Assembly: GCA_963555825.3 (NCBI GenBank) | Contig: CAUVXB020000002.1 | Location: 224,001 to 288,000, forward strand | Reading direction: 5' to 3' | DNA from: Alphaproteobacteria bacterium | Lineage (GTDB): Bacteria; Pseudomonadota; Alphaproteobacteria; JAAXGF01 | Length of the DNA: 64,000 nt | In this document: piece by piece, positions 22,309 through 44,339 of the stretch | Layout: every line of letters begins with the position of its first letter | How positions within the stretch are numbered: the first letter of the stretch is position 1 | Made by a program: the position numbers and the translations under genes | The notes under the pieces: model-generated | The model's input: the letters and a program-made list of their open reading frames with translations, nothing else | Told to the model about the DNA's origin: nothing | Databases searched by the model: none

Positions 22309-24608
22309 TGTCCGGCTGCGCGCATAACTCGCCATAGGTATTCGGGCGTCAACGGCATGTCGACCTGGGTCACGCCCAAGGATGCGAGCGCATCGATCAC
22401 GGCGTTGACAATTGCCGGCGGGCCGCCGATACAGCCGGCCTCGCCACAGCCCTTGGTGCCGAGCGGGTTGGCCGTGCACGGCGTGACGTTGCGCGCCGCG
22501 TCGAAGGCCGGCAGGTCGTCGGCGCGCGGCAGGCAGTAGTCCATCAACGAGCCCGACAGCAACTGCCCAGAACCGGCGTCGTAGACGCTGCGCTCGAAGA
22601 CCGCCTGGCCGAGGCCCTGGGCGAGCGCGCCGTGCAGCTGGCCGTCGACGATCAGCGGGTTGACGACCAAGCCGAAATCGTCGACCGCGGTATAGGCGAC
22701 GATGTCGAGCACACCGGTCTCGCGGTCGATCTCGACCTCGGCGATGTAGCAGCCGTTGGGAAACGTCTGCGCCTCGGCGTAGAAACGGAAGCGGCCCTCG
22801 ATGCCGGCCGCGGCGCCGGCGGCGACCTCGGCGAGCCCAATCGCGCGGTCGGTGCCGGCGACCGTGAACCGGCCGTCGGCAAAGGTCAGATCGCGCGCCG
22901 ACACCTCGAGCCGATCGGCGGCGAGCCCGGCCACCTTGTCGATCACGATGTCGGCCGCACCGCCGATCGCGCTGCCGGCGTGCGCCAGCGAGCGCGAAGC
23001 GACCGTGCCTTCGCCGTAGGCGATGGCGTCGGTATCGCCCTGCACCAGCCAAATATCGTCGAACGGCAGGCCGAGGCGCTCGGCGACGAGCTGCACGAAG
23101 GCGGTCTCGTGGCCCTGGCCGGTCGATTGCGAGCCGACCGCGACGCTGACCGCGCCACCGGGATCGAGACGGATCGTCGCCTCCTCGGCCGCGCCGCCGC
23201 CGCAGCGCTCGATATAGGTCGCCATGCCGAGGCCACGCAGTTTGCCGCGCACGGCGGCGCTGGCGCGGCGTTTCTCGAATGCCGGCCAATCGACGCGCGC
23301 CATGGCGTCATCCATGTTGCGCGCGAAATCGCCGTTGTCGTAGACCAGTCCCAGCGCCGTCGCATAGGGCATCGCCGCCGGCGCTATGAAGTTGCGCCGC
23401 CGGATGTCGTCCGGCGCGATGCCGATCTCGCGCGCGGCGGTCTCGATCAGGCGCTCGATGACATAGGCCGCCTCGGGCCGCCCCGCGCCGCGATAGGCGT
23501 CGGTCGGCACGGTGTTGGTGAAGACCGTCGTATACGCGGCCGACGCCGCCGGAATGTCATAGACGCCGCTCAACATCGACGCGCTCAGGATGGTCGAGAT
23601 GAAGGCGCCGTGCGGCGACAGATAGGCGCCGAGGTTGACCGTCGTCGCGACTCGCAGGCCGAGGATGCGGTGCTCGGCGTCGAGCGCGAGCTCGGCGTGG
23701 GTCGCGTGGTCGCGCGCCTGGCTATCGCTGACGAAGCTTTCGCTGCGTTCGCCGATCCAGCGCACCGGCCGGCCGACCCGCCTGGCCGCCCACAGGACCA
23801 ACGCCTGTTCGGCGTAGAGGAACGCCTTCATGCCGAAACCGCCACCGACGTCGGGCGTGACCACGCGCAACATTTTGGGGGGCATCTTGAGAACGTGGCC
23901 AGCGATGGCGTCGCGCAGCCCGTGGACGCCCTGGGTCCCGCTGGTCAGCGTATAGCGCCCCGTCGCCGCGTCGAAGTCGCCGATCGCGTTGCGCGGCTCC
24001 ATCGAGGCGACGACGACGCGATTGTTGACCAGTTCGAGCGAAACCACCCGCGTGGCGCGCGCGAAAGCGGCGTCCGTGGCCGCCGCGTCGCCCAGCCGGT
24101 AAACGGTGCAGACGTTGCCCGGCGCCTCGTCCCGGATCTGCGGCTGGCCGGCTTTCGCCGCTGTCCGGGTGCCGGTAACGACCGCGAGCGGCGCGTACTC
24201 GACGGCGATGAGCTCGGCGGCGTCCTTGGCCTGGGCGAGGCTCTCGGCGACCACCAAGGCGACCGGCTCGCCGACGTGGCGCACCCGGCCCGCCGCCAGC
24301 AGCGGCCGGGGCGGCGTCGCCATCGGTGCGCCGTCCCAGTTGGGCACATCGTCCAGGCTGGGTAGTGTGCCAAGCCCGTCGGCGGCGACATCGGCGGCGG
24401 TCAAGACGGCGAGCACGCCGGGCGCCGCCGCCGCAGCCGCAGCCGCGGTGTCGATCGAGGCGATCTCGGCATGGGCGTGCGGCGATCGCAGCACGAAGCC
24501 ATATGCCTGGTTCGCCATGGCGATGTCGTCGGTATAGCGACCCTGGCCGGTCAGAAACCGGTCGTCCTCGCGCCGGCGCAGCGCCTGACCGATGCCGAAT
24601 TTCTCCAT
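22305..24608 (-). CDS. Xanthine dehydrogenase-family molybdopterin-binding large subunit (CoxL form II-like)
   Basis: RREDDRFLTGQGRYTDD, DVGGGFGMK, AYRGAGRPE, GQGHET, KGCGEAG. Confidence 0.92.
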   Translation of the reverse strand: MEKFGIGQALRRREDDRFLTGQGRYTDDIAMANQAYGFVLRSPHAHAEIASIDTAAAAAAAAPGVLAVLTAADVAADGLGTLPSLDDVPNWDGAPMATPPRPLLAAGRVRHVGEPVALVVAESLAQAKDAAELIAVEYAPLAVVTGTRTAAKAGQPQIRDEAPGNVCTVYRLGDAAATDAAFARATRVVSLELVNNRVVVASMEPRNAIGDFDAATGRYTLTSGTQGVHGLRDAIAGHVLKMPPKMLRVVTPDVGGGFGMKAFLYAEQALVLWAARRVGRPVRWIGERSESFVSDSQARDHATHAELALDAEHRILGLRVATTVNLGAYLSPHGAFISTILSASMLSGVYDIPAASAAYTTVFTNTVPTDAYRGAGRPEAAYVIERLIETAAREIGIAPDDIRRRNFIAPAAMPYATALGLVYDNGDFARNMDDAMARVDWPAFEKRRASAAVRGKLRGLGMATYIERCGGGAAEEATIRLDPGGAVSVAVGSQSTGQGHETAFVQLVAERLGLPFDDIWLVQGDTDAIAYGEGTVASRSLAHAGSAIGGAADIVIDKVAGLAADRLEVSARDLTFADGRFTVAGTDRAIGLAEVAAGAAAGIEGRFRFYAEAQTFPNGCYIAEVEIDRETGVLDIVAYTAVDDFGLVVNPLIVDGQLHGALAQGLGQAVFERSVYDAGSGQLLSGSLMDYCLPRADDLPAFDAARNVTPCTANPLGTKGCGEAGCIGGPPAIVNAVIDALASLGVTQVDMPLTPEYLWRVMRAAGQ

Positions 24609-24801
24609 GACCGTGCATCTCCCCCGCCCTCGCCGGTCCGGCGTGACTTCGACAATCCGGGGCGGCGTCATGAAACTTGCGCGGTGGCGACGCGATTCGC
24701 AAGGTCGGCGTCGCCGGCGAGGCGCGATTTGTTCGTGTCATTCGGCCGCGATGTATGGTTCCCTTGTGGCAACGCACAGAGCCGGGATTACCGACGGCAA
24801 C

Positions 24802-27588
24802 ATGAGCGACGACGCTAAACGTCCTGAACGCATTTCGCTGGGCCGCTACTACAACGCCGCCCAGCTACGCGCCGACAGCTGGAACCGGCTCAAGGTGCTC
24901 GCCCAGCGCCGTGCGGAGAAGCGCTCTGCGGGTGTCGACACCGCCGGTCTGCATCACGAGTTCGCACAGGCGCTCGACACCCTCGAGCCGATCGAGAGCT
25001 ATTGGGCGTTCCCCTCGAAGCAGGCCTTCGAGCATATCCGCATGTTGTTCGAACAGGGCGATGACAGCCGACTGGCGCGGCTGGTCGCGCGCATCGTGCG
25101 GGCCCTGGTCAGCCAGTCCTACCGGCGCGGCATGATCTCGATGGATTTCTATCACGACGCCGAGGACGAGGAGAACGACGATGCGATCCTCGAATCCTTC
25201 GCCGAGGCCGATGCCGCGCCGGACCGTCCCTATTTCGAGGTGCTCGTCGTCGACAACATCTCGGCGCACGACGAACGCACCCTGCGGTCGGGGCTGCGCG
25301 CCATGCGCCGGCCCGAGGACAGTTTCGTTTACGACGTGGTCGTCGTGCCGAGCTTCGAGGACGCCCTGATCGCGGTGCTGTTCAACCACAACCTACAGGC
25401 CGCCGTCATCCGCTACGGCTTTCCCTTCGCCTCGCGCCACAATCTCGATGTTCTGCACCGCTATCTCGAGGCCGTCGACGAGCGCGCGCTCGAGGGCCGG
25501 CCGGATGCCGACCACGGTCCCCTGCTCGGCCGCGTGATCGGCGAACTCAGACCCGAACTCGACTGCTATCTGGTGACCGATTCGGCGGTCGAGGACGTCG
25601 CCGGCGAGATCGCCCAGCACTTCCAGCGCATCTTCTACCGCCAGGAGGACTATCTCGAGCTGCATCTCAGCATTCTGCGCGGCATCGAACACCGCTACGA
25701 AACGCCGTTCTTCACCGCGCTGCGCGAGTACGCCAAGCAGCCGACCGGCGTGTTCCACGCCATGCCGATCTCGCGCGGCAAGTCGGTCACCAAGTCCCAT
25801 TGGATCCAGGACATGGCGCGTTTTTACGGCATGAACATGTTCCTGGCCGAGACCTCGGCGACCTCGGGCGGCCTCGATTCACTGCTGCAACCGCTCGGGC
25901 CGATCAAGAAGGCCCAACAGCTCGCGGCCCGCGCTTTCGGCGCGCGCCATACCTTCTTCGTCACCAACGGCACCTCGACCGCCAACAAGGTGGTCATGCA
26001 GGCGCTCGTCACGCCGGGCGATATCGTCTTGGTCGACCGCGACTGCCACAAGTCGCTGCACTACGGCATGGTGCTGGGCGGCGGCTATGTCGATTATCTC
26101 GACGCCTATCCGCTACACGACTACTCGATGTACGGCGCCGTGCCGCTGCGCCAGATCAAGGCTCGCCTGCTGGCCTACAAACGCGCCGGCAAGCTCGACC
26201 GGGTCAAGCTTCTGGTGCTGACCAACTGCACCTTCGACGGGCTGATCTACAACGTCGAGCGGGTCATGGAGGAGTGCCTGGCAATCAAGCCCAACCTGGT
26301 GTTCCACTGGGACGAGGCGTGGTTCGCCTTCGCCAGTTTCGTGCCCGCCTACCGCCAGCGCACCGCCATGTACGTCGCCAACAGGCTGCGCCGGCGCTTT
26401 GCCGGCGAACGCTACCGCGCAGAATACGCGGCCTGGCGCGAAGACTTCGACAAGCTCGATGGCGACGCCGACGAGACCTGGCTCGACACGCGGCTGATGC
26501 CCGACCCCGATGTGGCGCGGGTGCGTGTCTATGCCACCCATTCGACGCACAAGACGCTGACCTCGCTGCGCCAGGGCTCGATGATTCACGTCAACGACCA
26601 GGACTACCGCGCCAAGGTCGAGGAGGCCTTCCACGAGGCCTATATGACACACACCTCGACCTCGCCGAACTACCAGATCCTCGCCTCGCTCGACATCGGC
26701 CGGCGTCAGGTCGAGCTCGAGGGCTTCGAGCTGGTGCAGAAGCAGATCGAGCTGGCCATGGTGCTGCGCGAACGCATCAAGACACACCCGCTGCTGTCGA
26801 AATATTTCCATTTCCTGACCATGGACCACCTGATCCCGGCCGAATACCGGCCGTCGGGCATCCAGGTCTACTACGACCCCGAGCGCGGCTGGTCGCGCAT
26901 GGAGGAGGCCTGGGGCTCCGACGAGTTCGCACTCGACCCGTCACGGCTGACGCTGTTCGTCGGCAAGACGGGGACCGACGGCGATACCTTCAAGAACCGC
27001 GTGCTGATGGACCGCTACGGCATCCAGATCAACAAGACGTCGCGCAACACGGTGCTGTTCATGACCAACATCGGCACGACGCGCAGCTCGGTCGCCTACC
27101 TCATCGAGGTGCTCGTCAAGATCGCCGAGGAACTCGACGAGGAGTACGCCGAATCGAGCCCGATCGAACGGCGGCTGCACGACAAGCGCGTTGTGTCGTT
27201 GTGCGTGGACCTGCCGCCGCTGCCCGACTTCAGCCATTTTCACGATGCTTTCCGGCCCGACCCCGACGGCGACACGCCCGAGGGCGACATGCGCACCGCC
27301 TATTTCAAGGCCTACGACGACGCGCAGTGCCGCTATCTCGACATCGACGAGATCGGCCGCGCGATCGAGGGCGGCGAGGCGGTCGTCTCGGCGATGTTCG
27401 TCATCCCCTATCCGCCGGGATTCCCGATCCTGGTGCCGGGACAGGTGGTCAGCCGCGCGATCCTCGACTATATGGGCGCACTCGACGTCAAGGAGATCCA
27501 CGGCTACCGCCCCGAGCTCGGCATGCGCGTCTTCACCGAAGAGGCGCTGGAGACGGCGAGCGGCGAAACCAAACGGGCAGCGGAGTAG
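24802..27588 (+). CDS. Large PLP-dependent amino-acid decarboxylase (Orn/Lys/Arg decarboxylase fold) with a long N-terminal extension
   Basis: GVFHAMP, FVTNGTSTANK, DRDCHKSLHYG, TNCTFDG, HWDEAW, PLP-lysine motif ATHSTHKTL, HTSTSPNY, PYPPGFPILVPG. 928 aa from ATG 24802. Confidence 0.92.
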   Translation: MSDDAKRPERISLGRYYNAAQLRADSWNRLKVLAQRRAEKRSAGVDTAGLHHEFAQALDTLEPIESYWAFPSKQAFEHIRMLFEQGDDSRLARLVARIVRALVSQSYRRGMISMDFYHDAEDEENDDAILESFAEADAAPDRPYFEVLVVDNISAHDERTLRSGLRAMRRPEDSFVYDVVVVPSFEDALIAVLFNHNLQAAVIRYGFPFASRHNLDVLHRYLEAVDERALEGRPDADHGPLLGRVIGELRPELDCYLVTDSAVEDVAGEIAQHFQRIFYRQEDYLELHLSILRGIEHRYETPFFTALREYAKQPTGVFHAMPISRGKSVTKSHWIQDMARFYGMNMFLAETSATSGGLDSLLQPLGPIKKAQQLAARAFGARHTFFVTNGTSTANKVVMQALVTPGDIVLVDRDCHKSLHYGMVLGGGYVDYLDAYPLHDYSMYGAVPLRQIKARLLAYKRAGKLDRVKLLVLTNCTFDGLIYNVERVMEECLAIKPNLVFHWDEAWFAFASFVPAYRQRTAMYVANRLRRRFAGERYRAEYAAWREDFDKLDGDADETWLDTRLMPDPDVARVRVYATHSTHKTLTSLRQGSMIHVNDQDYRAKVEEAFHEAYMTHTSTSPNYQILASLDIGRRQVELEGFELVQKQIELAMVLRERIKTHPLLSKYFHFLTMDHLIPAEYRPSGIQVYYDPERGWSRMEEAWGSDEFALDPSRLTLFVGKTGTDGDTFKNRVLMDRYGIQINKTSRNTVLFMTNIGTTRSSVAYLIEVLVKIAEELDEEYAESSPIERRLHDKRVVSLCVDLPPLPDFSHFHDAFRPDPDGDTPEGDMRTAYFKAYDDAQCRYLDIDEIGRAIEGGEAVVSAMFVIPYPPGFPILVPGQVVSRAILDYMGALDVKEIHGYRPELGMRVFTEEALETASGETKRAAE

Positions 27589-30799: not shown

Positions 30800-32626
30800 T
30801 CAGGCGCGGCGCAGCAGGTACATGCGCAGGTCGCCGTAGCCCTTGGCCGCAGGTACGGTGCCGACGTAGTCGCAGTCGAACTCGTGGCGCGGGTCGAGCG
30901 CCAGGCCGGCGGCGAAATGCTCGGTGACGTAGACGCAGCCCTCGGGCGTGATCGGCTCGATGCGCGCCGCCCGGCTGACGTGGGCGCCGAAGAAGTTGGT
31001 CGCGCCGACGATCGGGTCGATGGCCTCGTAGACCGGCCCGAAATGGCCGCCGAGGCGCAACGCGATAAACGCCGGCAGGCCCAAGTCGGCCAGCGACAGT
31101 ACGGCCATCGCCGCCTGCAGGTCGAGCGCGCAGCGCGCGGCGGCGGCGATGTCGTCGAACACCAGGTAGACGCCGTCGCCCCAGGTGTTGCGGAAGAGGA
31201 GCGGGCCGGCGAACCGTTCGAGCACCCGAGCCATGGCGCCCAGCACCGCGCGCACGAAGACCGGCAGCTGGCGGTCGTCGAGCTTGCTGAAACCCTTGAC
31301 GTCGCCGAACAGCATGGCCCGGTTGACCCGTCTGGTGACCGGCTCGGCCGGCTCGGCCGGCGCGGCCGGCTCGGGCGCCGCCGGCGCTGCCGCGCCGGCC
31401 GGGCACGGGATCACGGTCTGCGGATGGCCGATGTCGCGCCACAGCGCGGCGTCGACTGCGGTGCCGACCGTCCCCTTGGCCGGGCCGCCATCCCACAGCG
31501 CGACCTGGGCGACCGGGGCGTCGAGGTAGTGGCCGCGCAGCAGCGCGAGGCCCATGGCGAGGCGGCTGGCGTAGGCGAACAGCTCGTCGTCGCCGAGGTA
31601 ATGGTCCTCGGTCGCATAGGTGACCGTCGCGGCCTTAGCCAGGCAGTCGCGCGCGCGGCCCTCCCAACCGGGCCCGCCGCGCCGCACCGAGGTGTCGAGG
31701 AACTCGTCCAAGGTAAACGGCAGCACCAGGTTGAGCTCGGCGCCGCGCGCCAAGAGCGCCTCGGCGAACAGGATGTCGGCGCCGCAGGCGATCGAGCCGT
31801 AGCCGAAGCGGGCGTCGACCTCATTCAGCTGCGCCGCGATCGCGGCCGCCGCCTCGTCCTCGCCCTCGGCCGGGAAGCGCCCGGGTTCGCCCGGCGCGGC
31901 GATCATATGGCCGGTGAAATGGACTACCCGCCCGGCGGCGAGCTCGTCGAGCAGCGCGTCGTCGAGGTTGAGCGCGCGGCAGATGTGGCGCAGCTGCTTG
32001 CGCGTCGTCGCGCGCGCGCCGAGATCGTCTCCATGCGCCGCCACCGCCGCGGCCAACGCCACCCTCGCGGCCTCGGTCTCGCCCAGGATCAAGCGCGCCT
32101 CGGCGACGGTCGCCGCTCGGTAGTAGGCCTCGACGCCCGCCGCCCCGGGCAGCGCCTCGATCTCGGCGATCAAACGTGCCGCGATGTCCCCGGCAACGTC
32201 GCGCTCGCCCGCGATGAGCCGCATGGTCGCCGTGTTGATGCCGGGAAAGTATGTCTTGGTGCGCTCATAGACTCGGCCATAGGCCTCGGCCGCGTCGTGC
32301 GCACGCCGCGCCCGTTCATCGCCCTCGGCCAGCCAGACCAGATCCTTGCCGAGCCGAGCGCCGAGCGCCGCGATGTCCTCGTCGTCGTCTTGGTCAAGCC
32401 CGTATTCGGCATAACGCGTCAACGCCGTCTCGGTCGCCCCCGAGCGCGCCAGCGCCATCACCGCGCGGTGCGCGAGCCATTTGTCGCCGGGATGCGCGTC
32501 CAGCCCGCGCAACGCCGCGTCGTAGGCGCGCAGCATCATGCCCCGCGTCTCGAAACTGCGCACCAGCGCGCGCCAGTCGTCGAGGCTGGCAGGGGGTTGG
32601 TCGGTGGCGGGCGGCGTGTCGGTCAT
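30800..32626 (-). CDS. TPR/TRAF-binding-like domain + SLOG-like domain + class III nucleotide cyclase
   Basis: 608 aa from ATG 32626. N-terminal helical domain (ALARSG, ARLGKD, YFPGINTAT). Middle FTGHM..GRFP..GSIACGADILFAE..LVLPF..ALWDG (SLOG-like). C-terminal LFGDVKGFS/NTWGDG/GHFGPV/VSRAARIE. Confidence 0.85.
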   Translation of the reverse strand: MTDTPPATDQPPASLDDWRALVRSFETRGMMLRAYDAALRGLDAHPGDKWLAHRAVMALARSGATETALTRYAEYGLDQDDDEDIAALGARLGKDLVWLAEGDERARRAHDAAEAYGRVYERTKTYFPGINTATMRLIAGERDVAGDIAARLIAEIEALPGAAGVEAYYRAATVAEARLILGETEAARVALAAAVAAHGDDLGARATTRKQLRHICRALNLDDALLDELAAGRVVHFTGHMIAAPGEPGRFPAEGEDEAAAAIAAQLNEVDARFGYGSIACGADILFAEALLARGAELNLVLPFTLDEFLDTSVRRGGPGWEGRARDCLAKAATVTYATEDHYLGDDELFAYASRLAMGLALLRGHYLDAPVAQVALWDGGPAKGTVGTAVDAALWRDIGHPQTVIPCPAGAAAPAAPEPAAPAEPAEPVTRRVNRAMLFGDVKGFSKLDDRQLPVFVRAVLGAMARVLERFAGPLLFRNTWGDGVYLVFDDIAAAARCALDLQAAMAVLSLADLGLPAFIALRLGGHFGPVYEAIDPIVGATNFFGAHVSRAARIEPITPEGCVYVTEHFAAGLALDPRHEFDCDYVGTVPAAKGYGDLRMYLLRRA

Positions 32627-34778
32627 CGGCGCAGCTTTTCGCAATCGACGCCGGCCCTCGGCCGGGCGTCGGACGGCGGGTCGGGGTCGAGGAGGAATTG
32701 CTCGCGCTGTTCCTTGGTGAGTTGCCGAGGGACGATGCAGCGCGCATAGTCGATCAGGGCTTGCGTGGTCGGAAAGTATGGCCAAAGTCGGGCCGTCTTG
32801 TCCTCGGACGCAGTTACGATGCGGCTGCCATCGGGGCTGAAGGCGGCATAGATCACGCTATCAGTGTGGCCGTGTAGAAAAGCGATTTCTTCGCCATTTG
32901 CTGAATCCCAAACGCGTGCGGTATTGTCCGCGGATGCCGTAACAATACGGTTGCCGTCTGGGCTGAAGTCAGCGTGCCCGACATCAAGCGTATGACCGCG
33001 TAGCACCCCAATCTCGGCGCCGCTGGCCACATCCCAAAGATTTACCTCGCCATGCCCCGAGGCAGTAACCACCAAATTTCCATTGGGACTGAAGGCTGCG
33101 TAGTTGACAAAGGCCTCGGATCCACGCAGGACGGCCATCTCCCCGCCGTTTTCCGTGTCCCAGATGCGCGCCGTGTTGTCCATGGCTGCAGTGACGACTC
33201 GGCGGCTATCGGGACTGAAGGCGACATGATTGATTCGTGTCTCATGGCCTCGGAGGATGGTCAGCTCATCGCCGCTCTCTGGGTCCCACAGCCGTGCGGT
33301 ACGGTCAAATGATGCGGTGGCGACGCGGCGGCCGTTGGGACTGAAGATAGCGTGGTAGATCGGACCCGTGTGGCCGCTTAGGACGGTAAGTTCGACGCCG
33401 CTCAACGCATCCCACAGGCGCGCCGTGCCATCCATTGACGCCGTAACGACGCGGTCTCCATGAGGGCCGAATTCGGCGTAGGTAAGCTTTGCCTGGTGGC
33501 CGACAAGGACGGCAATTTCGGTGCCGCTCGCTGCATCCCACAGCCGGGCCGTACCATCATTTGACGCGGTAACGATGCGGTCGCCGTCAGGGCTGAAAGC
33601 ACCATGGACGACGGTGTCATCATGACCTCGGAGGTTCCCAATTTCGGCGCCGTCGGCCACATCCCAAAGGCGCGTCGGCCCATCGACAGACGTGGTCAAA
33701 ACCCGCCTTCCGTCGGGGCTGAATGCGGCGGAAGAAACTTTGCTCGAATGACCCTGTAAGACAGTGACGCGAGCACCGCTCGTTCCATCCCACAGGCGGG
33801 CTGTCCCGTCGGCCGACCCGGTGACAATTCGATTTCCGCCGGGGTGGTACGCGGCGTATCCGACCGAATACTCATGACCACGAAAAACGGCGATTTCGGA
33901 ACCACTAGTCACATCCCACAGTCGCGCGGTGGCATCTCCCGAAGCAGTAATGACGAGTGACCCGTCAGGACTGAAGGTTGCGAAAAAGAGGTCCTGTTCA
34001 TGGCCACGGAGGACGAAAATTTCCGAGCCACTCTCCGCGTCCCACAGCCGCGCCGTGCTATCCAACGAAGCGGTGACAACCAGGCTTCCGTCATAGTTGA
34101 AGTCGGTGTGCCAAACCGGGCCCACGTGCCCGGCGAGGACGGCAAGCTCGGCACCGCTGGTGACGTCCCACAAGCGTGCTGTCCCGTCGAATGACGCAGT
34201 GACAACGCGGTTTCCTCTGGGGTCGAACGCCGCATACACAACTGCGCTCTCATGGCCGCGTAGGACAGCGATCTCGACTCCCCCCGCCGCATCCCAGAGC
34301 CGCGCCGTATCATCGTAGGACGCGGTCACGATGCGGCTGCCGTCGGGACTGAAGGCGGCGTGCGCGACTTTGTCCTCGTGACCGCGCAGCACGGCGATCT
34401 CGACCCCGTCCTTCGCATCCCAAATTCGGGACGTTGAATCCATCGACGCAGTGAGGACTCGGCGTCCATTGGGACTGAACTCAGCGTGGTTGACCGGTGC
34501 CTCGTGGCCGCTCAGAACAGTGATCTCCGTACCGCTTGCTGAGTCCCATATACGTGCCGTCCGGTCCCATGAACTGGTTATGACATAGTCGCCATCGGAG
34601 CTGAAAGCAGCGTCCAGAACGTCACCCTTATGACCGCGAAGGACAGCGATCTCGGCGCCAGTTGTCGCATCCCATAGACGTGCCGTTCCACCCCACGACC
34701 CGGTGACGATAGTGAGTCGGACCCGATTTCCTTGGACACAGAATTGGCTTAATCGAAGTGTCCAAGGAGGACCGGAAC

Positions 34779-35189
34779 ATGACCGACAATTTTGAGAACA
34801 AAGTTGCTGTTGATGGGCCTGTGGTAAACGAGGGCGAGCTTGGCTCGTCCACGTTTTCCCCGGGCCAGGTTTCGCCGGCAGGCCCGCTGGGACTTGGCCA
34901 GCGGTGGACGGTGACGCGCAAGCGTGAGGTTGCCCTGCGGCTTTTGCGTGGCGAGCCGGTGGAACTTTTGTCGCGGCAGTTGGGCGTGGAGATTTTCCGG
35001 CTCGAGCAGTGGCGTGAGAAGGCGATCGCCGGGATCGATGCCTCGCTCAAGGAACGCAAGGGCGATCCGGTGAAGGCGGAACTGGACATCGCCATGAAGC
35101 GGATCGGGGAGTTGATCATGCAGGTGGAACTGCTGGAGGCCAAGACGGAGACGTCCGGCCCTTTGGGGCGGCGGAGGTCGCGGCGATGA
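34779..35189 (+). CDS. IS3-type transposase OrfA (HTH)
   Basis: RWTVTRKREVALRLLRGEPVELLSRQLGVEIFRLEQW. ATGA overlap with OrfB. Confidence 0.85.
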   Translation: MTDNFENKVAVDGPVVNEGELGSSTFSPGQVSPAGPLGLGQRWTVTRKREVALRLLRGEPVELLSRQLGVEIFRLEQWREKAIAGIDASLKERKGDPVKAELDIAMKRIGELIMQVELLEAKTETSGPLGRRRSRR

Positions 35190-36097
35190 GTGCCGCCACC
35201 TCTCCCGGCACGGGTTTGGCCTACGGCCTCCAGCGGGTCTGTGCGGCCTGGGGTTTTGCCCGTTCCTCGTTCTACGCCATGAAATCCCGGCAGCAGGCCA
35301 CCGCTGAGCGCCCACCAGCAAAGCGCCGGGGACCGAAGCCCTCGATCTCGGACGAGGCTCTGCTGGTGGCCATCGAGGCCGACCTGGAGGCATCCCCCTG
35401 GGAGGGCGAGGGACACCGCAAGGTCTGGGCTCGGCTTCGGGTCTGTCGTGGCATCCGTGTTTCCCGCAAGCGGGGGCTCCGGGTGATGCGCGAGAACAAC
35501 CTGCTCTCGCCCCATCGCTGCCGCCGCCGTGGCGGAAATCCCCATGTCGGTGAGATCATCACCCATGCCCCCAACCTCATGTGGGGCACGGACGGCGTTC
35601 GGGTGTTCACGGTGGACGACGGCTGGGGCTGGATATTCACCGCCATCGAGCATTGGAACGCCGAGTGCGTCGGCTGGCATGTGTGCAAGCGAGGCGACCG
35701 CTTCGCCGCCCTTCAGCCGATCTCCATGGGGCTTGCGAGGCTGTATGCCTCGACCTCCGCCGGTGCGGCGCGGGGGCTGGCCTTGCGGATGGATCACGGC
35801 TCCCAGTATCTGTCGGACCACTTCACCAACCAGATCAAGTTCTGGGGCATCCAGCCGTCCTACGCCTTCGTCGAACAGCCCCAGACCAACGGCGTCGCCG
35901 AGAGGTTCAATCGCACGCTCAAGGAACAGATCATCCATGGCCGCATCTACCGCAACATCGCGGAGCTGCGGAACGCCGTCCGCGGGTTCGTCGAACAGTA
36001 CAATGCCCAGTGGATCGTGGAGAAGAACGGCTACCTGAGCCCCGCTCAAGCTCGTCAGGCGTGGCACACCGCGATGTCACTCAGGCCCGCCGCATGA
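35186..36097 (+). CDS. IS3-type transposase OrfB (rve DDE integrase core)
   Basis: PNLMWGTD, RMDHGSQY, PQTNGVAERFNRTLKE. Confidence 0.93.
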   Translation: MSAATSPGTGLAYGLQRVCAAWGFARSSFYAMKSRQQATAERPPAKRRGPKPSISDEALLVAIEADLEASPWEGEGHRKVWARLRVCRGIRVSRKRGLRVMRENNLLSPHRCRRRGGNPHVGEIITHAPNLMWGTDGVRVFTVDDGWGWIFTAIEHWNAECVGWHVCKRGDRFAALQPISMGLARLYASTSAGAARGLALRMDHGSQYLSDHFTNQIKFWGIQPSYAFVEQPQTNGVAERFNRTLKEQIIHGRIYRNIAELRNAVRGFVEQYNAQWIVEKNGYLSPAQARQAWHTAMSLRPAA

Positions 36098-37421
36098 GAC
36101 AAACTTGTGTCCAAGGAACCGGGTGCGATACACCCGGTGACGATAGTGCGCCCGTCGGGACTAAACGCGACGCGCTCGACAGGCCCTTGGTGTCCTCGCA
36201 ATATCGTCAACTCCCGATGCGAATACATGGCTCGGTAAAGAGCATTCTCGGCCCGAATAGCAAATGGACGGTCCGGATTTGTCATATCGTCTGGCAAAGC
36301 CTCCAAAGCAAGCAACAAGCCGTTGGTCGCGTTCCCCATCTCTGTCTGTCGGACCGAAAGTTCGGCCAGGCGCAAGCTCTCGGCGCGTGCCTTTTGCCAC
36401 GCCTCGTCCCGCGCCTGGCGCTCGCCGTGGAACCAGATGCCGCCGACGACGAGAAGCGCGGCGACGCTCGCGGCCGCCACCTGGACGCGGCGCCAGGCGC
36501 TGCGGCGCTTATCGCGCTGCTTGAGTTCGTCGAAGTCGACGCCGAGCAAGCCGGCGAGCAGCTTGAGGCGGGCGTCGGGCTTGGCGTCCTTGCCCGGGCG
36601 GGCGTCGGCGGCGATCGGTTCGGTGCGTTGGTCGGTGTAGGCGCCGTCTTCGTCGATTTGGAAGCGCAGCGCCGGGCAGAAGCACTCCTCGGCCTCGCGC
36701 CCATCCTTGTCCGAGGCGTTCGGCTCGCCGCCGACGATCAGGCACAGGATGCGGTTCTCGCGTCCCAACCGCTTGAACTGGAGGACCTCCTCGTTGACCC
36801 AGATCGATTTGGCCGCCGATGGCGAGCAGATGACGATCAGATAGCGCGACTGTTCCAGGGCATCGCGGATCGTTGCGCCGAGATCGGCCGAGGTCGGCAA
36901 TTCCTCGCGATCGCGAAAGATCGGGTAGGGGCGCTTCGGGACGACGCCGTCACGCGATGTCCGGCCGACCAAACGCTTGGGCGTCCGGTAGCGCTCAATC
37001 GCTTGGTGCAGCCACTTGCCCCAGCCGTCGTCGTCGTGGCTGTAGCTTATGAACGCCCAATATTTCGGATCACCGGTCATTGCTGATTGCCATTAGAGCA
37101 TAATCCGACCGATCGGAATCGGTCGGAATATGCCAGCCCGCGACCGCGGGCCGATCGGCGAAAGCATGCGCGGCGATTGAGCGCAGGTCACTTTTACGCA
37201 GTTAAGGTGACCGTTTCATGCTTGAAACCACAGCCGAGAGCACCGAATAAGTTGCGCGGCGGCGGGGTGAAGATTCTTCTGGCGCGGCGCGAAAAATCTG
37301 CTATAGAGCGGGCGCCCGGACGTCGGCCCGAAAGCGGCCCGCGCCGGGCTTGTTATCAACGGCCCAAAATCAGCCGCGGGCGAGCGGATCGCCACGCGGG
37401 ACGGGCCTAAGGACACGGCGA

Positions 37422-42685: not shown

Positions 42686-44339
42686 GGGTGTGGGTCTGGT
42701 ATGGAAAATCTAAGTCATTGATTTAGTGCGTTTTTTGTGTCGAGACGAACGGCCGAAATCGGCTATTCGTGACAATGGGCCGCTCCAAGGCAGGATTTTG
42801 TTACGACGGCAGGGTCGAGCAGGGGAAGGTGGGAACGCTCCGCACCGCCAGAAGCGGTACGATGCCGTGTCTCGAAACCCAACATCGGGAGCATTCCCAT
42901 GGCAGTATCCCCGCCTCCGGCGCCTTCGTCCATCGATCTTTCCGGCCTGCCTCCTCGGGTCGTCGAGGCGGCCGCCCGGGTGCTCGCACTGTGTCGCGAG
43001 GAGCTTCGTTCCGAGCCGCGCCCCGAGGCGCCCGAGGAGGTCGAGTTGCGGGTGCGTGAGGCCACGAACGAGTTCGCTCGCGATGTCATGGGCGCCGTCA
43101 TCGAGAACCGGGACGATGGCGCTTCCCGGATCGAGCGGGACGGGCAGAGCTGGTTCCGGGTCGCGGTGACGCCGAAGACGATCATGACCTCGCTCGGTCC
43201 GGTGACCTACCGGCGAGCGCGTTACCGCAGCGGCGCGAGCGGGGCATCGCCGGTGCCGGTCGACGAGAGCCTGGGCCTCGTCGACGATTACCTGACGCGG
43301 CCGGCGGCCGAGCTCGGTCTGCTGATGATGGGTCACTGCACGGCCCGGGAAGCGGCGGCGTTCTTTGCGAAGACCGGCGCCATGACGCCGTCGGTGAGCA
43401 CCCTGCAGCGCCTGACCCTGAGCATGCACGAATGCTGGGAGAGCCTCGGCCCGGAGACGCTGGGCAGCATCCGTGAGGCCGAGGGCATACCGCAGGACGC
43501 GACCACCGCCTCGGTCTCCCTCGACGGCGTCATGGTGCCGCTGAGACCCGGCGAGGACGGTCGCGCCAAGGCCTCCTGGCGCGAGGCTGCCTGCGGCACG
43601 GTCTCCTTCCACGACGCCGAGGGCAAGCGCCTGAAGACCCTCTATCTCGGCCGCATGCCGGAGAGCGGCAAGCTCACGCTGAAGGCGCAGCTTGCAAGCG
43701 AAGTCGCACACATCAGGCGAGCACGCCCCGAGATCGGGATCGTCGCTATCGCCGATGGCGCCGCCGACAACTGGACCTTCCTGGAGACCCTGTCGCCCGA
43801 AACCGAGGTGATCGACTTCTGGCATGCTTGCGAACATCTGCAAACCGCGTCCGACCATGCCGTGGCGCCCGGCTGGTTCGAGAAGTACCGCGAGATCCTC
43901 CGTCACGATCCCCGTGGCGTCGCCAAGGTGATCCGGGCGCTGCGCCACCTTCGCGATGCCGCCGCTGCGCCGGACCGGGCCGAGACCGAGCGGGAACTCG
44001 CCTTCTTCCGCAAGCATCGCCATCGCATGCGCTACCACGCCCTGAAGGAAGAGGGCATCGCCATCGGCTCAGGCGTGGTCGAAGCTGCCAACAAGACCCT
44101 GGTGACACAGCGCATGAAGCGCTCCGGCATGCGCTGGCGGATCGTCGGCGGACAGGCTGTTCTGACCTTCCGCGCCCTGATCAAATCCGGCCGCTTCGAG
44201 CGGGCATGGAAGGCCCTGATCAGCGCAACCGACACACCGGCCAACGACAACATCAGTCCACGTGCAGCAGCCATGGCAATCGCTGCCTGAACTCAACGAA
44301 CCAAGCCGCAGACATCACTGCCATGCGAGACTCGCACCC
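42686..44339 (+). mobile_element. ISKra4/ISLre2-like (UPF0236, Mutator-related) IS, 1654 bp
   Basis: Inverted repeats GGGTGTGGGTCTGGTATGG vs GGGTGCGAGTCTCGCATGG. 8-bp target duplication GCCGCCAA (42678-42685, 44340-44347). IHF-consensus site at 42711-42723. Confidence 0.9.
42899..44290 (+). CDS. DDE transposase (ISKra4/ISLre2-like)
   Basis: SLDGVMV, IADGA, IDFWHACEHL, IGSGVVEAANK, RMKRSGMRW. Confidence 0.92.
   Translation: MAVSPPPAPSSIDLSGLPPRVVEAAARVLALCREELRSEPRPEAPEEVELRVREATNEFARDVMGAVIENRDDGASRIERDGQSWFRVAVTPKTIMTSLGPVTYRRARYRSGASGASPVPVDESLGLVDDYLTRPAAELGLLMMGHCTAREAAAFFAKTGAMTPSVSTLQRLTLSMHECWESLGPETLGSIREAEGIPQDATTASVSLDGVMVPLRPGEDGRAKASWREAACGTVSFHDAEGKRLKTLYLGRMPESGKLTLKAQLASEVAHIRRARPEIGIVAIADGAADNWTFLETLSPETEVIDFWHACEHLQTASDHAVAPGWFEKYREILRHDPRGVAKVIRALRHLRDAAAAPDRAETERELAFFRKHRHRMRYHALKEEGIAIGSGVVEAANKTLVTQRMKRSGMRWRIVGGQAVLTFRALIKSGRFERAWKALISATDTPANDNISPRAAAMAIAA

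Follow-up and report, generated by a model that had tools for sequence, protein, structure and literature searches.

A widespread gene pair encoding a membrane-anchored TIR-WD40 protein and a TPR-S/SLOG/cyclase protein: a candidate TIR-to-cyclase signaling module interrupted by an insertion sequence in an alphaproteobacterium

Introduction

Can the product of a TIR enzyme serve as the input of a nucleotidyl cyclase? This question is raised by two overlapping genes in a 64-kb stretch of DNA from an alphaproteobacterium (contig CAUVXB020000002.1 of assembly GCA_963555825.3, positions 224,001 to 288,000), hereafter the window, whose coordinates are used throughout. Both genes and all their pieces lie within 30800-37080 on the minus strand. 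Gene 1 encodes a TIR domain, a predicted transmembrane (TM) helix and WD40 repeats, and gene 2 encodes a helical TPR-S region, a SLOG-fold domain and a class III nucleotidyl cyclase domain. An earlier note, made from the letters of this stretch, described the pair as a candidate signaling/defense module in which the TIR protein could activate a SLOG-gated cyclase.

The two genes form, with a probability that we put slightly above even, a single conserved signaling module with a TIR-to-cyclase relay that is broken in this genome. The module is recognized by the identities of its domains, their folds, the conserved catalytic residues, the pairing of the genes across genomes, a signal of membrane topology and the enrichment of neighboring genes whose products bind cyclic mononucleotides (cNMPs). 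The two genes are not a chance pattern, both proteins having large families, and the pair appears to be a widespread variant of TIR/Thoeris-type signaling.

The gene pair across genomes

Relatives of gene 2 were found at 567 places in species-representative genomes, and 80 of these loci were kept for analysis. They span Alpha-, Beta- and Gammaproteobacteria, Actinomycetota, Acidobacteriota and other groups, with identities of 50-55% across phyla. TIR domains were sought in the loci with a hidden Markov model (HMM) of our own, built from 25 neighbors and the window; where no gene had been called for gene 2 (11 of the 80 loci), stop-to-stop open reading frames (ORFs) were used. A TIR ORF is present within 8 kb of gene 2 in 58 of the 80 loci, and WD40-coding DNA within the same distance in 48. 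In 45 loci, the TIR gene lies no more than 400 nt from gene 2, in four different arrangements: upstream on the same strand, as here (20 loci), divergent (14), convergent (6) and downstream on the same strand (5). The TIR gene is farther than 400 nt away in 12 more loci, and there is one odd case. That the two genes stay linked through inversions and rearrangements in different phyla is a good argument for a functional pair.

When 54 large neighbors were compared with Pfam, TIR_2 was detected in 31 of the 49 listed, and 29 of these 31 also matched propeller families. Clustering of 1064 neighbor genes yielded two widely shared families, namely gene 2 itself (69 loci) and the TIR-TM-WD40 family (46 loci, with a median gap of 72 nt). 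No third universal gene emerged from the 1064; the next families were the extracytoplasmic function (ECF) sigma factors (10 loci), Crp-like regulators (9) and an ATP-binding cassette (ABC) ATPase (8). The distribution of gene 2 is patchy: it is present in 6 of 41 related genomes, including this one, and in 1 of 12 genomes of the same family. Intact natural pairs are available among the loci (e.g. L017, L034, L058 and L071), whereas the copy in the window, being disrupted, has little experimental value.

Several loci depart from the simple pair. Two of them (L021 and L048) carry two TIR-TM-WD40 paralogs beside a single gene 2 relative, and several receptors may feed one cyclase there. In two others, the gene 2 relative has no TIR-WD40 neighbor: it adjoins an nSTAND1 NTPase of 1263 amino acids in one (L033:10121-13909) and a caspase-SH3-FGE-sulfatase protein of 720 amino acids in the other (L026:4953-7112), where a weak TIR match lies downstream. 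Both are domain types of conflict or signaling systems.

Domains and folds of the cyclase protein

Gene 2 is intact, and its product matches no PADLOC or NCBIfam family. Its full-length relatives number in the hundreds: among 8000 candidates, 755 proteins were detected at E<=1e-3, and the best 120 are mostly 570-720 amino acids long, the shortest having 510. The TPR-S match in the N-terminal region is above the Pfam cut-off, and a match to MAP3K_TRAF_bd, the TRAF-binding TPR region of mitogen-activated protein kinase kinase kinases, is below it (2.6e-4). An AlphaFold2 model built from 34 relatives, with a predicted local distance difference test (pLDDT) score of 90.3 and a predicted template modeling score (pTM) of 0.90, consists of helical repeats, an alpha/beta domain, a disordered linker and the cyclase domain, with the boundaries given in Table 1.

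A Foldseek search with the whole 608-residue model retrieved cyclases only, and the middle domain was therefore folded and searched alone. Its top Foldseek matches are ShosA, YpsA, DprA, LOG and the N-terminal domain of TRPM2, and the VIA-align Z scores are 17.3 for YpsA, 12.7 for DprA, 11.6 for ShosA, 10.2 for LOG, 9.1 for TRPM2 and 6.2 for the SLOG domain of BcThsA. The 14 top VIA-align matches (Z 8.0-17.3) comprise YpsA, DprA, ShosA, LOG-type and related carrier proteins, and the TRPM2 domain. Going by the model, the middle domain is a member of the SLOG superfamily, with the YpsA branch as the nearest. The domains matched in TRPM2 and ThsA are SLOG domains that bind ligands. The likeness to YpsA of B. 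subtilis (PDB 2nx2) extends over 157 residues with a root mean square deviation of 2.9 (Foldseek E 9e-5, template modeling (TM) score 0.60/0.64), whereas YpsA is a small, stand-alone protein, with sequence identity to the middle domain of 15-16%. YpsA is reportedly linked to cell division. The residues of the SLOG loops are invariant or nearly so in the gene 2 family: G239 and H240, Y276 and G277, G282 and D284, E289, T339 and D341, W378, D379 and G380, G388 and T389, and D392.

The cyclase domain has the cyclase homology domain (CHD) of mycobacterial Rv1900c as its top Foldseek match (E 1e-8, TM score relative to the target 0.80-0.83); Cya2, CyaB and soluble guanylate cyclase come next. The 34 aligned sequences do not vary at D442 (in LFGDvKGFS), W482-G483-D484 (in NTWGDG), R524, H528, R552 and E557, and at least 90% of them have R555. 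Profile alignment to solved cyclases (3mr7, 3et6 and 2w01) places D442 and D484 at the two metal-binding Asp residues and R555 at the Arg of the (V)N..(A)R.E motif; the positions concerned are those regarded as canonical in class III cyclases. The fold, the metal-binding Asp pair and the Arg are shared with Rv1900c (PDB 1ybt/1ybu). Conservation of the catalytic core argues for an active cyclase.

The frame of gene 2 is open for 53 codons further upstream, to a TTG at 32785 (32626-32785, minus strand), overlapping the end of gene 1. This extension is probably untranslated because the relatives begin at the position of the ATG at 32626.

The TIR protein and its predicted topology

Gene 1 starts at 37080, and its present-day ORF runs into an insertion sequence (IS) and stops at 36055, after 341 amino acids. 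When the IS and one copy of the flanking duplication are removed, 3021 nt remain, i.e. 1007 codons in frame. The N-terminal part matches the Pfam families TIR_2 (9.3e-12), ThsB_TIR (1.2e-7) and TIR (7.6e-5). The predicted membrane helix has KQRDKRRSAWRR before it. By Pfam, WD40 repeat 1 begins at residues 291-316, with the rest beyond the IS; the C-terminal part matches PF00400 in 15 stretches (E 6.7e-155), which together with the partial repeat in the N-terminal part gives 16. The ATGA shared by the stop codon of gene 1 and the start codon of gene 2, along with a gap of 270 nt of non-coding DNA between gene 1 and a divergent MlaC-family gene, makes the two genes look like one operon.

The wider family of TIR-TM-repeat proteins counts 4607 members at E<=1e-3 among 8000 scored proteins. 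The best longer relative of gene 1 among the 8000 has 1066 amino acids and 58% identity to the N-terminal part; an intact, near-identical allele of gene 1 was searched for among the relatives and not found. The TIR part matched only the PADLOC models SAVED_TIR (5e-5) and PDC-S66 (1e-3), with no match to PycC, PycTIR or other Pycsar models. Pfam detects no cNMP_binding domain in the N-terminal part at E<=0.01, the TIR domain and a linker occupying about 190 residues before the helix.

The partner TIR domains look enzymatically competent: all 26 that were aligned have Glu at the catalytic position (the second E in SIWVNEE). A hydrophobic 19-mer follows the TIR domain in 55 of 60 partner TIR ORFs, some 195-210 residues in, and the mean net charge of the 15 residues before the helix (+3.6) exceeds that after it (+1.1), with the higher charge before the helix in 48 of the 55. 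Under the positive-inside rule, this charge bias would place the TIR domain in the cytoplasm and the C-terminal domain outside. The outer domain varies between loci, with WD40 repeats in most and other lengths elsewhere; no Pfam propeller was detected in the TIR-TM protein of Arenimonas loci, with about 360 amino acids, or in that of a Burkholderiales locus, with about 620. This variability implies that the conserved unit is an N-in TIR domain with one helix and a variable outer domain, which amounts to a predicted receptor-like design. The partner named in the earlier note, a TIR-WD40 protein, is accordingly found at most loci, and the partner that is conserved is of the broader kind.

Neighbors that bind cyclic nucleotides

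A domain HMM detects cNMP-binding ORFs in 27 of the 80 loci, with 29 such ORFs in 1.25 Mb; for comparison, the genome that harbors the window has 8 cNMP-binding matches in 6.04 Mb. Many of these ORFs abut gene 2 or the TIR gene. This enrichment supports an active cyclase with a locally read product.

Crp-type regulators are the commonest kind. The combination of cNMP_binding and HTH_Crp_2 is present in L027, L035, L044, L066, L068, L074 and L076, and the Crp-like cluster, with its 9 loci, lies at a median distance of 194 nt from gene 2. In several Actinomycetota, such regulators stand directly beside the pair (L027:8539-9273, L035:4113-4916, L044:6691-7416, L066, L068, L074 and L076). The Crp-type neighbors are candidate dedicated readers of the cyclase product, and in the commonest form of the system the output would be transcription.

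The other cNMP-binding neighbors are diverse and include patatin, major facilitator superfamily (MFS) and ABC fusions, C39-ABC exporters, a disulfide-oxidoreductase fusion and small stand-alone domains. In three loci (L052:6647-9829, L055:3636-6809 and L022:184-3492), gene 2 relatives adjoin the genes of large proteins in which a pair of cNMP-binding domains is joined to a C39 peptidase and an ABC exporter, and this layout, which resembles that of bacteriocin exporters, suggests cyclic-nucleotide-gated peptide export in some versions of the system. In another locus, a fusion of a cNMP-binding domain with a patatin phospholipase is encoded about 3.2 kb downstream of the gene 2 relative, just past the TIR-WD40 gene (L037:13059-14843); as an effector-like output, it would fit a conflict role in that genome.

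Disruption of gene 1 by an insertion sequence

The IS splits gene 1 inside WD40 repeat 1 and leaves gene 2 intact, so that the pathway is, to judge from the sequence, disabled in this genome. The transposase ORF matches the Pfam families rve, rve_3 and HTH_21 and the NCBIfam model of IS3 transposases, NF033516 (7.7e-44), where its 150.4 bits are slightly under the cut-off of 160. An orfA/orfB organization, the rve transposase and the TG...CA ends are all as in IS3. The target-site duplication is not: IS3 elements duplicate 3-5 bp, and the 14 bp found here far exceed that length. At 12 copies of the IS that were examined, the 14-bp duplication is exact in 8, has one mismatch in 1 and is absent in 3; two of the three copies that lack it sit 2.4 kb apart.

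The genome contains at least 40 full-length copies of the IS at 100% identity, spread across both contigs (40 scored of 163 candidates). Given these identical copies, which point to a recent burst, the insertion in gene 1 is recent, and a recent insertion fits the undamaged state of gene 2. Formation of the direct repeat by recombination between IS copies in different WD40 repeats was considered and ruled out: other copies share the 14-bp duplication, and excision restores the frame.

What the earlier note had described holds up in each detail that could be checked, namely the ATGA overlap (32626 to 32623), a reconstructed gene 1 of 1007 amino acids, its TIR domain with the Glu of SIWVNEE, a hydrophobic segment of about 19 residues, 16 WD40 repeats, a TPR/TRAF-binding-like region in gene 2 followed by a class III cyclase, and inactivation by the IS. 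The SLOG-like character of the middle domain, which had been set beforehand as a test, is borne out by the structural comparisons, and the co-location of homologs by the 58 of 80 loci.

Table 1. Coordinates of the gene pair, its domains and the inserted element in the window
Feature	Position	Strand	Details
Gene 2, 608 amino acids, intact	30800-32626	-	TPR-S, SLOG and class III cyclase domains
Class III nucleotidyl cyclase domain, residues 433-607	30806-31330	-	PF00211 Guanylate_cyc 3.8e-6 at residues 437-606
SLOG-fold Rossmann-like domain, residues 233-406	31409-31930	-	domain model pLDDT 90.5, Foldseek, VIA-align
Helical TPR-S region, residues 15-229	31940-32584	-	PF20308 4e-10 at residues 35-135; all-helical in model
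ATGA overlap, gene 1 stop / gene 2 ATG	32623-32626	-	
Gene 1, C-terminal part	32623-34712	-	end of WD40 repeat 1, 15 further WD40 repeats, tail of ~60 amino acids, stop
Target-site duplication copy 1, 14 bp	34699-34712	.	exact match to copy 2
IS3-like IS, 1420 bp, ends TG...CA	34713-36132	+	orfA-like frame ~34781-35190; rve/DDE ORF 35186-36097
Target-site duplication copy 2, 14 bp	36133-36146	.	exact match to copy 1
Gene 1, N-terminal part, 316 amino acids	36133-37080	-	TIR, linker, single membrane helix, start of WD40 repeat 1
Predicted membrane helix, residues 199-217	36430-36486	-	hydrophobic 19-mer, Kyte-Doolittle mean 2.05
TIR core, residues 10-117	36730-37053	-	contains SIWVNEE with candidate catalytic Glu

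The proposed relay and the points against it

In the relay that we favor, gene 1 would encode a bitopic protein with an enzyme-type TIR domain in the cytoplasm, one helix and a double WD40 propeller outside. The gene 2 protein would be cytoplasmic, its cyclase being fused to TPR-S and SLOG, domain types for which the reading of NAD-derived TIR products is established or presumed. The outer WD40 domain would bind a cue; the TIR domains would cluster and convert NAD+ to an ADP-ribose-derived messenger; this messenger would be bound by TPR-S and/or SLOG; and the cyclase domains, freed or dimerized, would make a cyclic mononucleotide. The latter would pass the signal to cNMP-binding proteins, most commonly a Crp-type regulator whose gene lies close by in other genomes. 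We infer all of the biochemistry from the observations given above, and likewise which way the signal flows, which nucleotide is made and what role the pair plays.

Several points weigh against this relay. The cyclase of gene 2 departs from the solved enzymes in two respects: S551 stands where these have the transition-state Asn, and the base-specifying positions are occupied by N480 and, at about 545, mostly by Asn, compared with the canonical Lys/Asp (ATP) or Glu/Cys (GTP). Both departures are well conserved within the gene 2 family, and they set it apart from Rv1900c, as does the different regulatory fusion; it follows that the product of the cyclase cannot be named and that its activity is not assured. 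The middle domain taken alone has no match in Pfam even at E 10, although the HMMER filters can drop weak matches, and it could be an enzyme instead of a sensor, LOG-type SLOG proteins being hydrolases. The outer placement of the WD40 repeats is predicted from just one helix and the positive-inside rule.

The genomic record contributes further objections. Among the 80 loci, 22 lack a TIR gene; in 12 of these a flank is truncated, and the other 10 have full 8-kb flanks, so that gene 2 relatives can stand without a neighboring TIR gene. The 64-kb window contains no cNMP-binding gene, the nearest on the same contig being about 0.8 Mb off. Finally, a precedent with different wiring exists: in a TIR/TPR pair described in a 2023 preprint, the TPR protein, not the TIR protein, made the cyclic ADP-ribose (cADPR) isomer, and a complex of the two was reportedly needed (10.1101/2023.05.26.542521).

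Relation to known systems

To our knowledge, all bacterial TIR signaling characterized so far (the Thoeris types) leads to an effector that brings about cell death or arrest, and its TIR sensors are cytoplasmic. The pair shares with these systems a TIR domain with the catalytic Glu and, in 45 of the 80 loci, an adjoining gene with a SLOG/TPR-type domain; location among defense genes and recognition by defense models, which are also typical of Thoeris, were not found. In type I Thoeris, as related in a 2025 survey, the SLOG domain binds a TIR-made cADPR isomer, which switches on the fused SIR2 domain (bioRxiv 10.64898/2025.12.03.692087). The gene order of a TIR enzyme beside a SLOG-bearing protein recurs here, and the SLOG domain of ThsA (7uxs) matches the middle domain with Z 6.2. 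Unlike in type I Thoeris, the output domain is a class III cyclase in place of SIR2, the SLOG domain is closest to YpsA (Z 17.3) and not to ThsA, a TPR-S region is present in addition, the TIR protein spans the membrane and carries a large outer WD40 domain, and there is no defense-island context.

Type VIII Thoeris provides a second precedent. Its TIR makes canonical cADPR, and its effector ThsI combines a "CMP hydrolase" with TPR; the survey presumes that the TPR perceives cADPR and credits the prediction of a role in TIR signaling to Aravind and colleagues (bioRxiv 10.64898/2025.12.03.692087). As in this type, a TIR gene is paired here with a gene for a TPR-bearing protein, given that gene 2 is above the Pfam cut-off for TPR-S. 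We take the TPR of ThsI and the TPR-S of Pfam to be the same family. The TPR scaffold is said to have been proposed as a sensor of NAD-derived signals in a 2020 paper of the Aravind laboratory. The gene 2 protein differs from ThsI in that it has no domain of the CMP-hydrolase or deoxyribosyltransferase type (none by Pfam; nucleoside 2-deoxyribosyltransferase 1f8x reaches only Z 5.8) and in that its TPR-S region is N-terminal and followed by SLOG and cyclase domains, which sets it apart from ThsI as described. The proposal of the earlier note, that the TIR could activate a SLOG-gated cyclase, stands as regards the pair and the SLOG fold; the sensor may be TPR-S instead of, or along with, SLOG, as the ThsI precedent suggests, and TPR-S is as good a candidate as SLOG.

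In Pycsar and Pucsar, the signal passes from cyclase to TIR, through a cNMP-binding domain on the TIR effector, as outlined in a further preprint (bioRxiv 10.64898/2026.08.12.744502). In these systems, as in the pair, the genes for a class III-type cyclase and a TIR protein go together, with a cyclic mononucleotide as the likely messenger. They differ from it in that their cyclases stand alone, whereas that of gene 2 is fused to TPR-S and SLOG, and in that the TIR protein described here has no cNMP-binding domain. A likeness to the Toll-like receptors of animals is one of analogy: these also are single-pass proteins with a repeat-type sensor outside and a TIR domain inside, and homology is claimed for the TIR fold alone. 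In gene 1, the order is reversed, with the TIR domain at the N-terminus; the repeats are of the WD40 type where Toll-like receptors have leucine-rich ones; the TIR domain has an enzyme-type Glu; and the partner is a nucleotide-sensor protein, not a TIR adaptor.

The pair seems to be new to the literature compared, outside which lie the catalogs of the Aravind laboratory (2015, 2020): no description of, or experiment on, a TIR-TM-WD40 protein paired with a TPR-S/SLOG/cyclase protein was found there. The Thoeris survey of 2025 distinguishes 29 putative effector types, and its text is silent on nucleotide cyclase effectors and on WD40, although its supplementary tables may list the pair (bioRxiv 10.64898/2025.12.03.692087). 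The preprint of 2023 summarizes 78 TPR-core operons that Burroughs and Aravind described in 2020, where the partners are TIR, YpsA, patatin, LSDAT and calcineurin, and the word cyclase is absent from the passages compared (10.1101/2023.05.26.542521).

Signaling, defense or another wiring

The biological role of the pair is best considered on a scale from environmental or envelope signaling, directed from the outside in, to classical abortive-infection defense, and the evidence tilts moderately toward the former. Defense of the Thoeris kind would employ the same relay, with a cNMP that triggers a growth-arresting effector in three-tier abortive infection, so that the role alone differs; we consider this unlikely, but to be taken seriously. 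The catalytic Glu in the TIR domain, and TPR-S and SLOG as sensor types of Thoeris effectors, are what such a system would have. The patchy distribution and the TIR-WD40 paralogs in L021 and L048 also speak for it, and the variety of outer domains and of cNMP-binding outputs, including the patatin of L037, is typical of conflict systems. The defense label of the earlier note nevertheless has no support from the genomic context. Gene 2 matches no PADLOC model; at E<=1e-8, PADLOC recognizes 7 of 149 nearest neighbors (50 loci); in six of them the match is confined to the cNMP-binding part of models for Pycsar effectors, and the seventh matches mad2. The neighbors in the window are metabolic (a xanthine-dehydrogenase-type enzyme, a large Orn/Lys/Arg decarboxylase, an AAT-family acyltransferase, MlaC, a 2-hydroxyacid dehydrogenase, a homocysteine methyltransferase and a DAO oxidoreductase). 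Gene 2 has no match in 50,697 phage records and just two, distant and partial, in 72,556 plasmid records, and its conservation at 50-55% across phyla is unusually high for a defense gene. Furthermore, the output most often linked to the pair is a transcription factor of the Crp type and not a killer, and known Thoeris TIRs are not known to detect phage from outside the membrane.

Two other explanations concern the wiring itself. Gene pairing alone gives no direction, and in Pycsar and Pucsar the cyclase product activates a TIR NADase (bioRxiv 10.64898/2026.08.12.744502), so that gene 2 might sense through TPR-S or SLOG and its cNMP might activate the TIR protein as an NAD+-depleting effector. 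Such a reversal is very improbable here: the Pycsar and Pucsar effectors described in that text have the cNMP-binding domain fused to TIR, whereas none was detected in the N-terminal part of gene 1 at the threshold given above; no PADLOC Pycsar model matches gene 2 or the TIR part; the separate cNMP-binding proteins enriched nearby offer another reader of the cyclase product; and a TIR protein with so large a sensor domain outside suits an input, not an effector. The pair might also work with no diffusible NAD-derived messenger, if the TIR protein docks onto or scaffolds gene 2, or if the SLOG domain is a nucleotide-processing enzyme that the TIR protein merely regulates. The BcTir/BcTpr pair, with a cADPR isomer reportedly made by the TPR protein and a need for the TIR and TPR proteins to form a complex (10.1101/2023.05.26.542521), is a precedent of this kind, hydrolases such as LOG are among the relatives of SLOG, and the strictly conserved motifs of the SLOG loops are like those of an active site. 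Against this stand the Glu at the catalytic position in 26 of 26 TIR domains, which would be superfluous in a pure scaffold, the closest structural relative, which is YpsA and not LOG, and the diffusible TIR products of type I and type VIII Thoeris; we hold a messenger-free wiring to be improbable, if less so than the reversed one.

The favored relay can be taken one step further, to a Toll-like outside-in route in which an external cue is converted into a TIR-made, NAD-derived messenger, the messenger acts on a TPR-S/SLOG-gated cyclase of non-canonical base specificity, and a cognate Crp-family regulator changes transcription. This full route is offered tentatively, its chances being somewhat short of even. 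If it operates, it would be the first cascade with a TIR product as the input of a nucleotide cyclase and the first bacterial TIR route that serves mainly for sensing, not killing. The relay in itself, if true, would mean that NAD-derived and cyclic-mononucleotide messengers can be chained, would give a function to the widespread, unstudied TIR-TM-repeat proteins and would make the role of TPR-S and SLOG as general readers of TIR products directly testable by cNMP formation. The pair also bears on the origin of receptor-type TIR signaling before animals and plants.

Other genes of the window

Two further genes in the window have unusual features. The Orn/Lys/Arg decarboxylase (24592-27588, plus strand) has 998 amino acids, and its first ~370 residues, which match no Pfam family, form an unusually long N-terminal extension. 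An ORF at 42899-44290 (plus strand) matches UPF0236 with E 4.7e-10; we take UPF0236 to be a transposase-related family, and this ORF may represent a second kind of mobile element.

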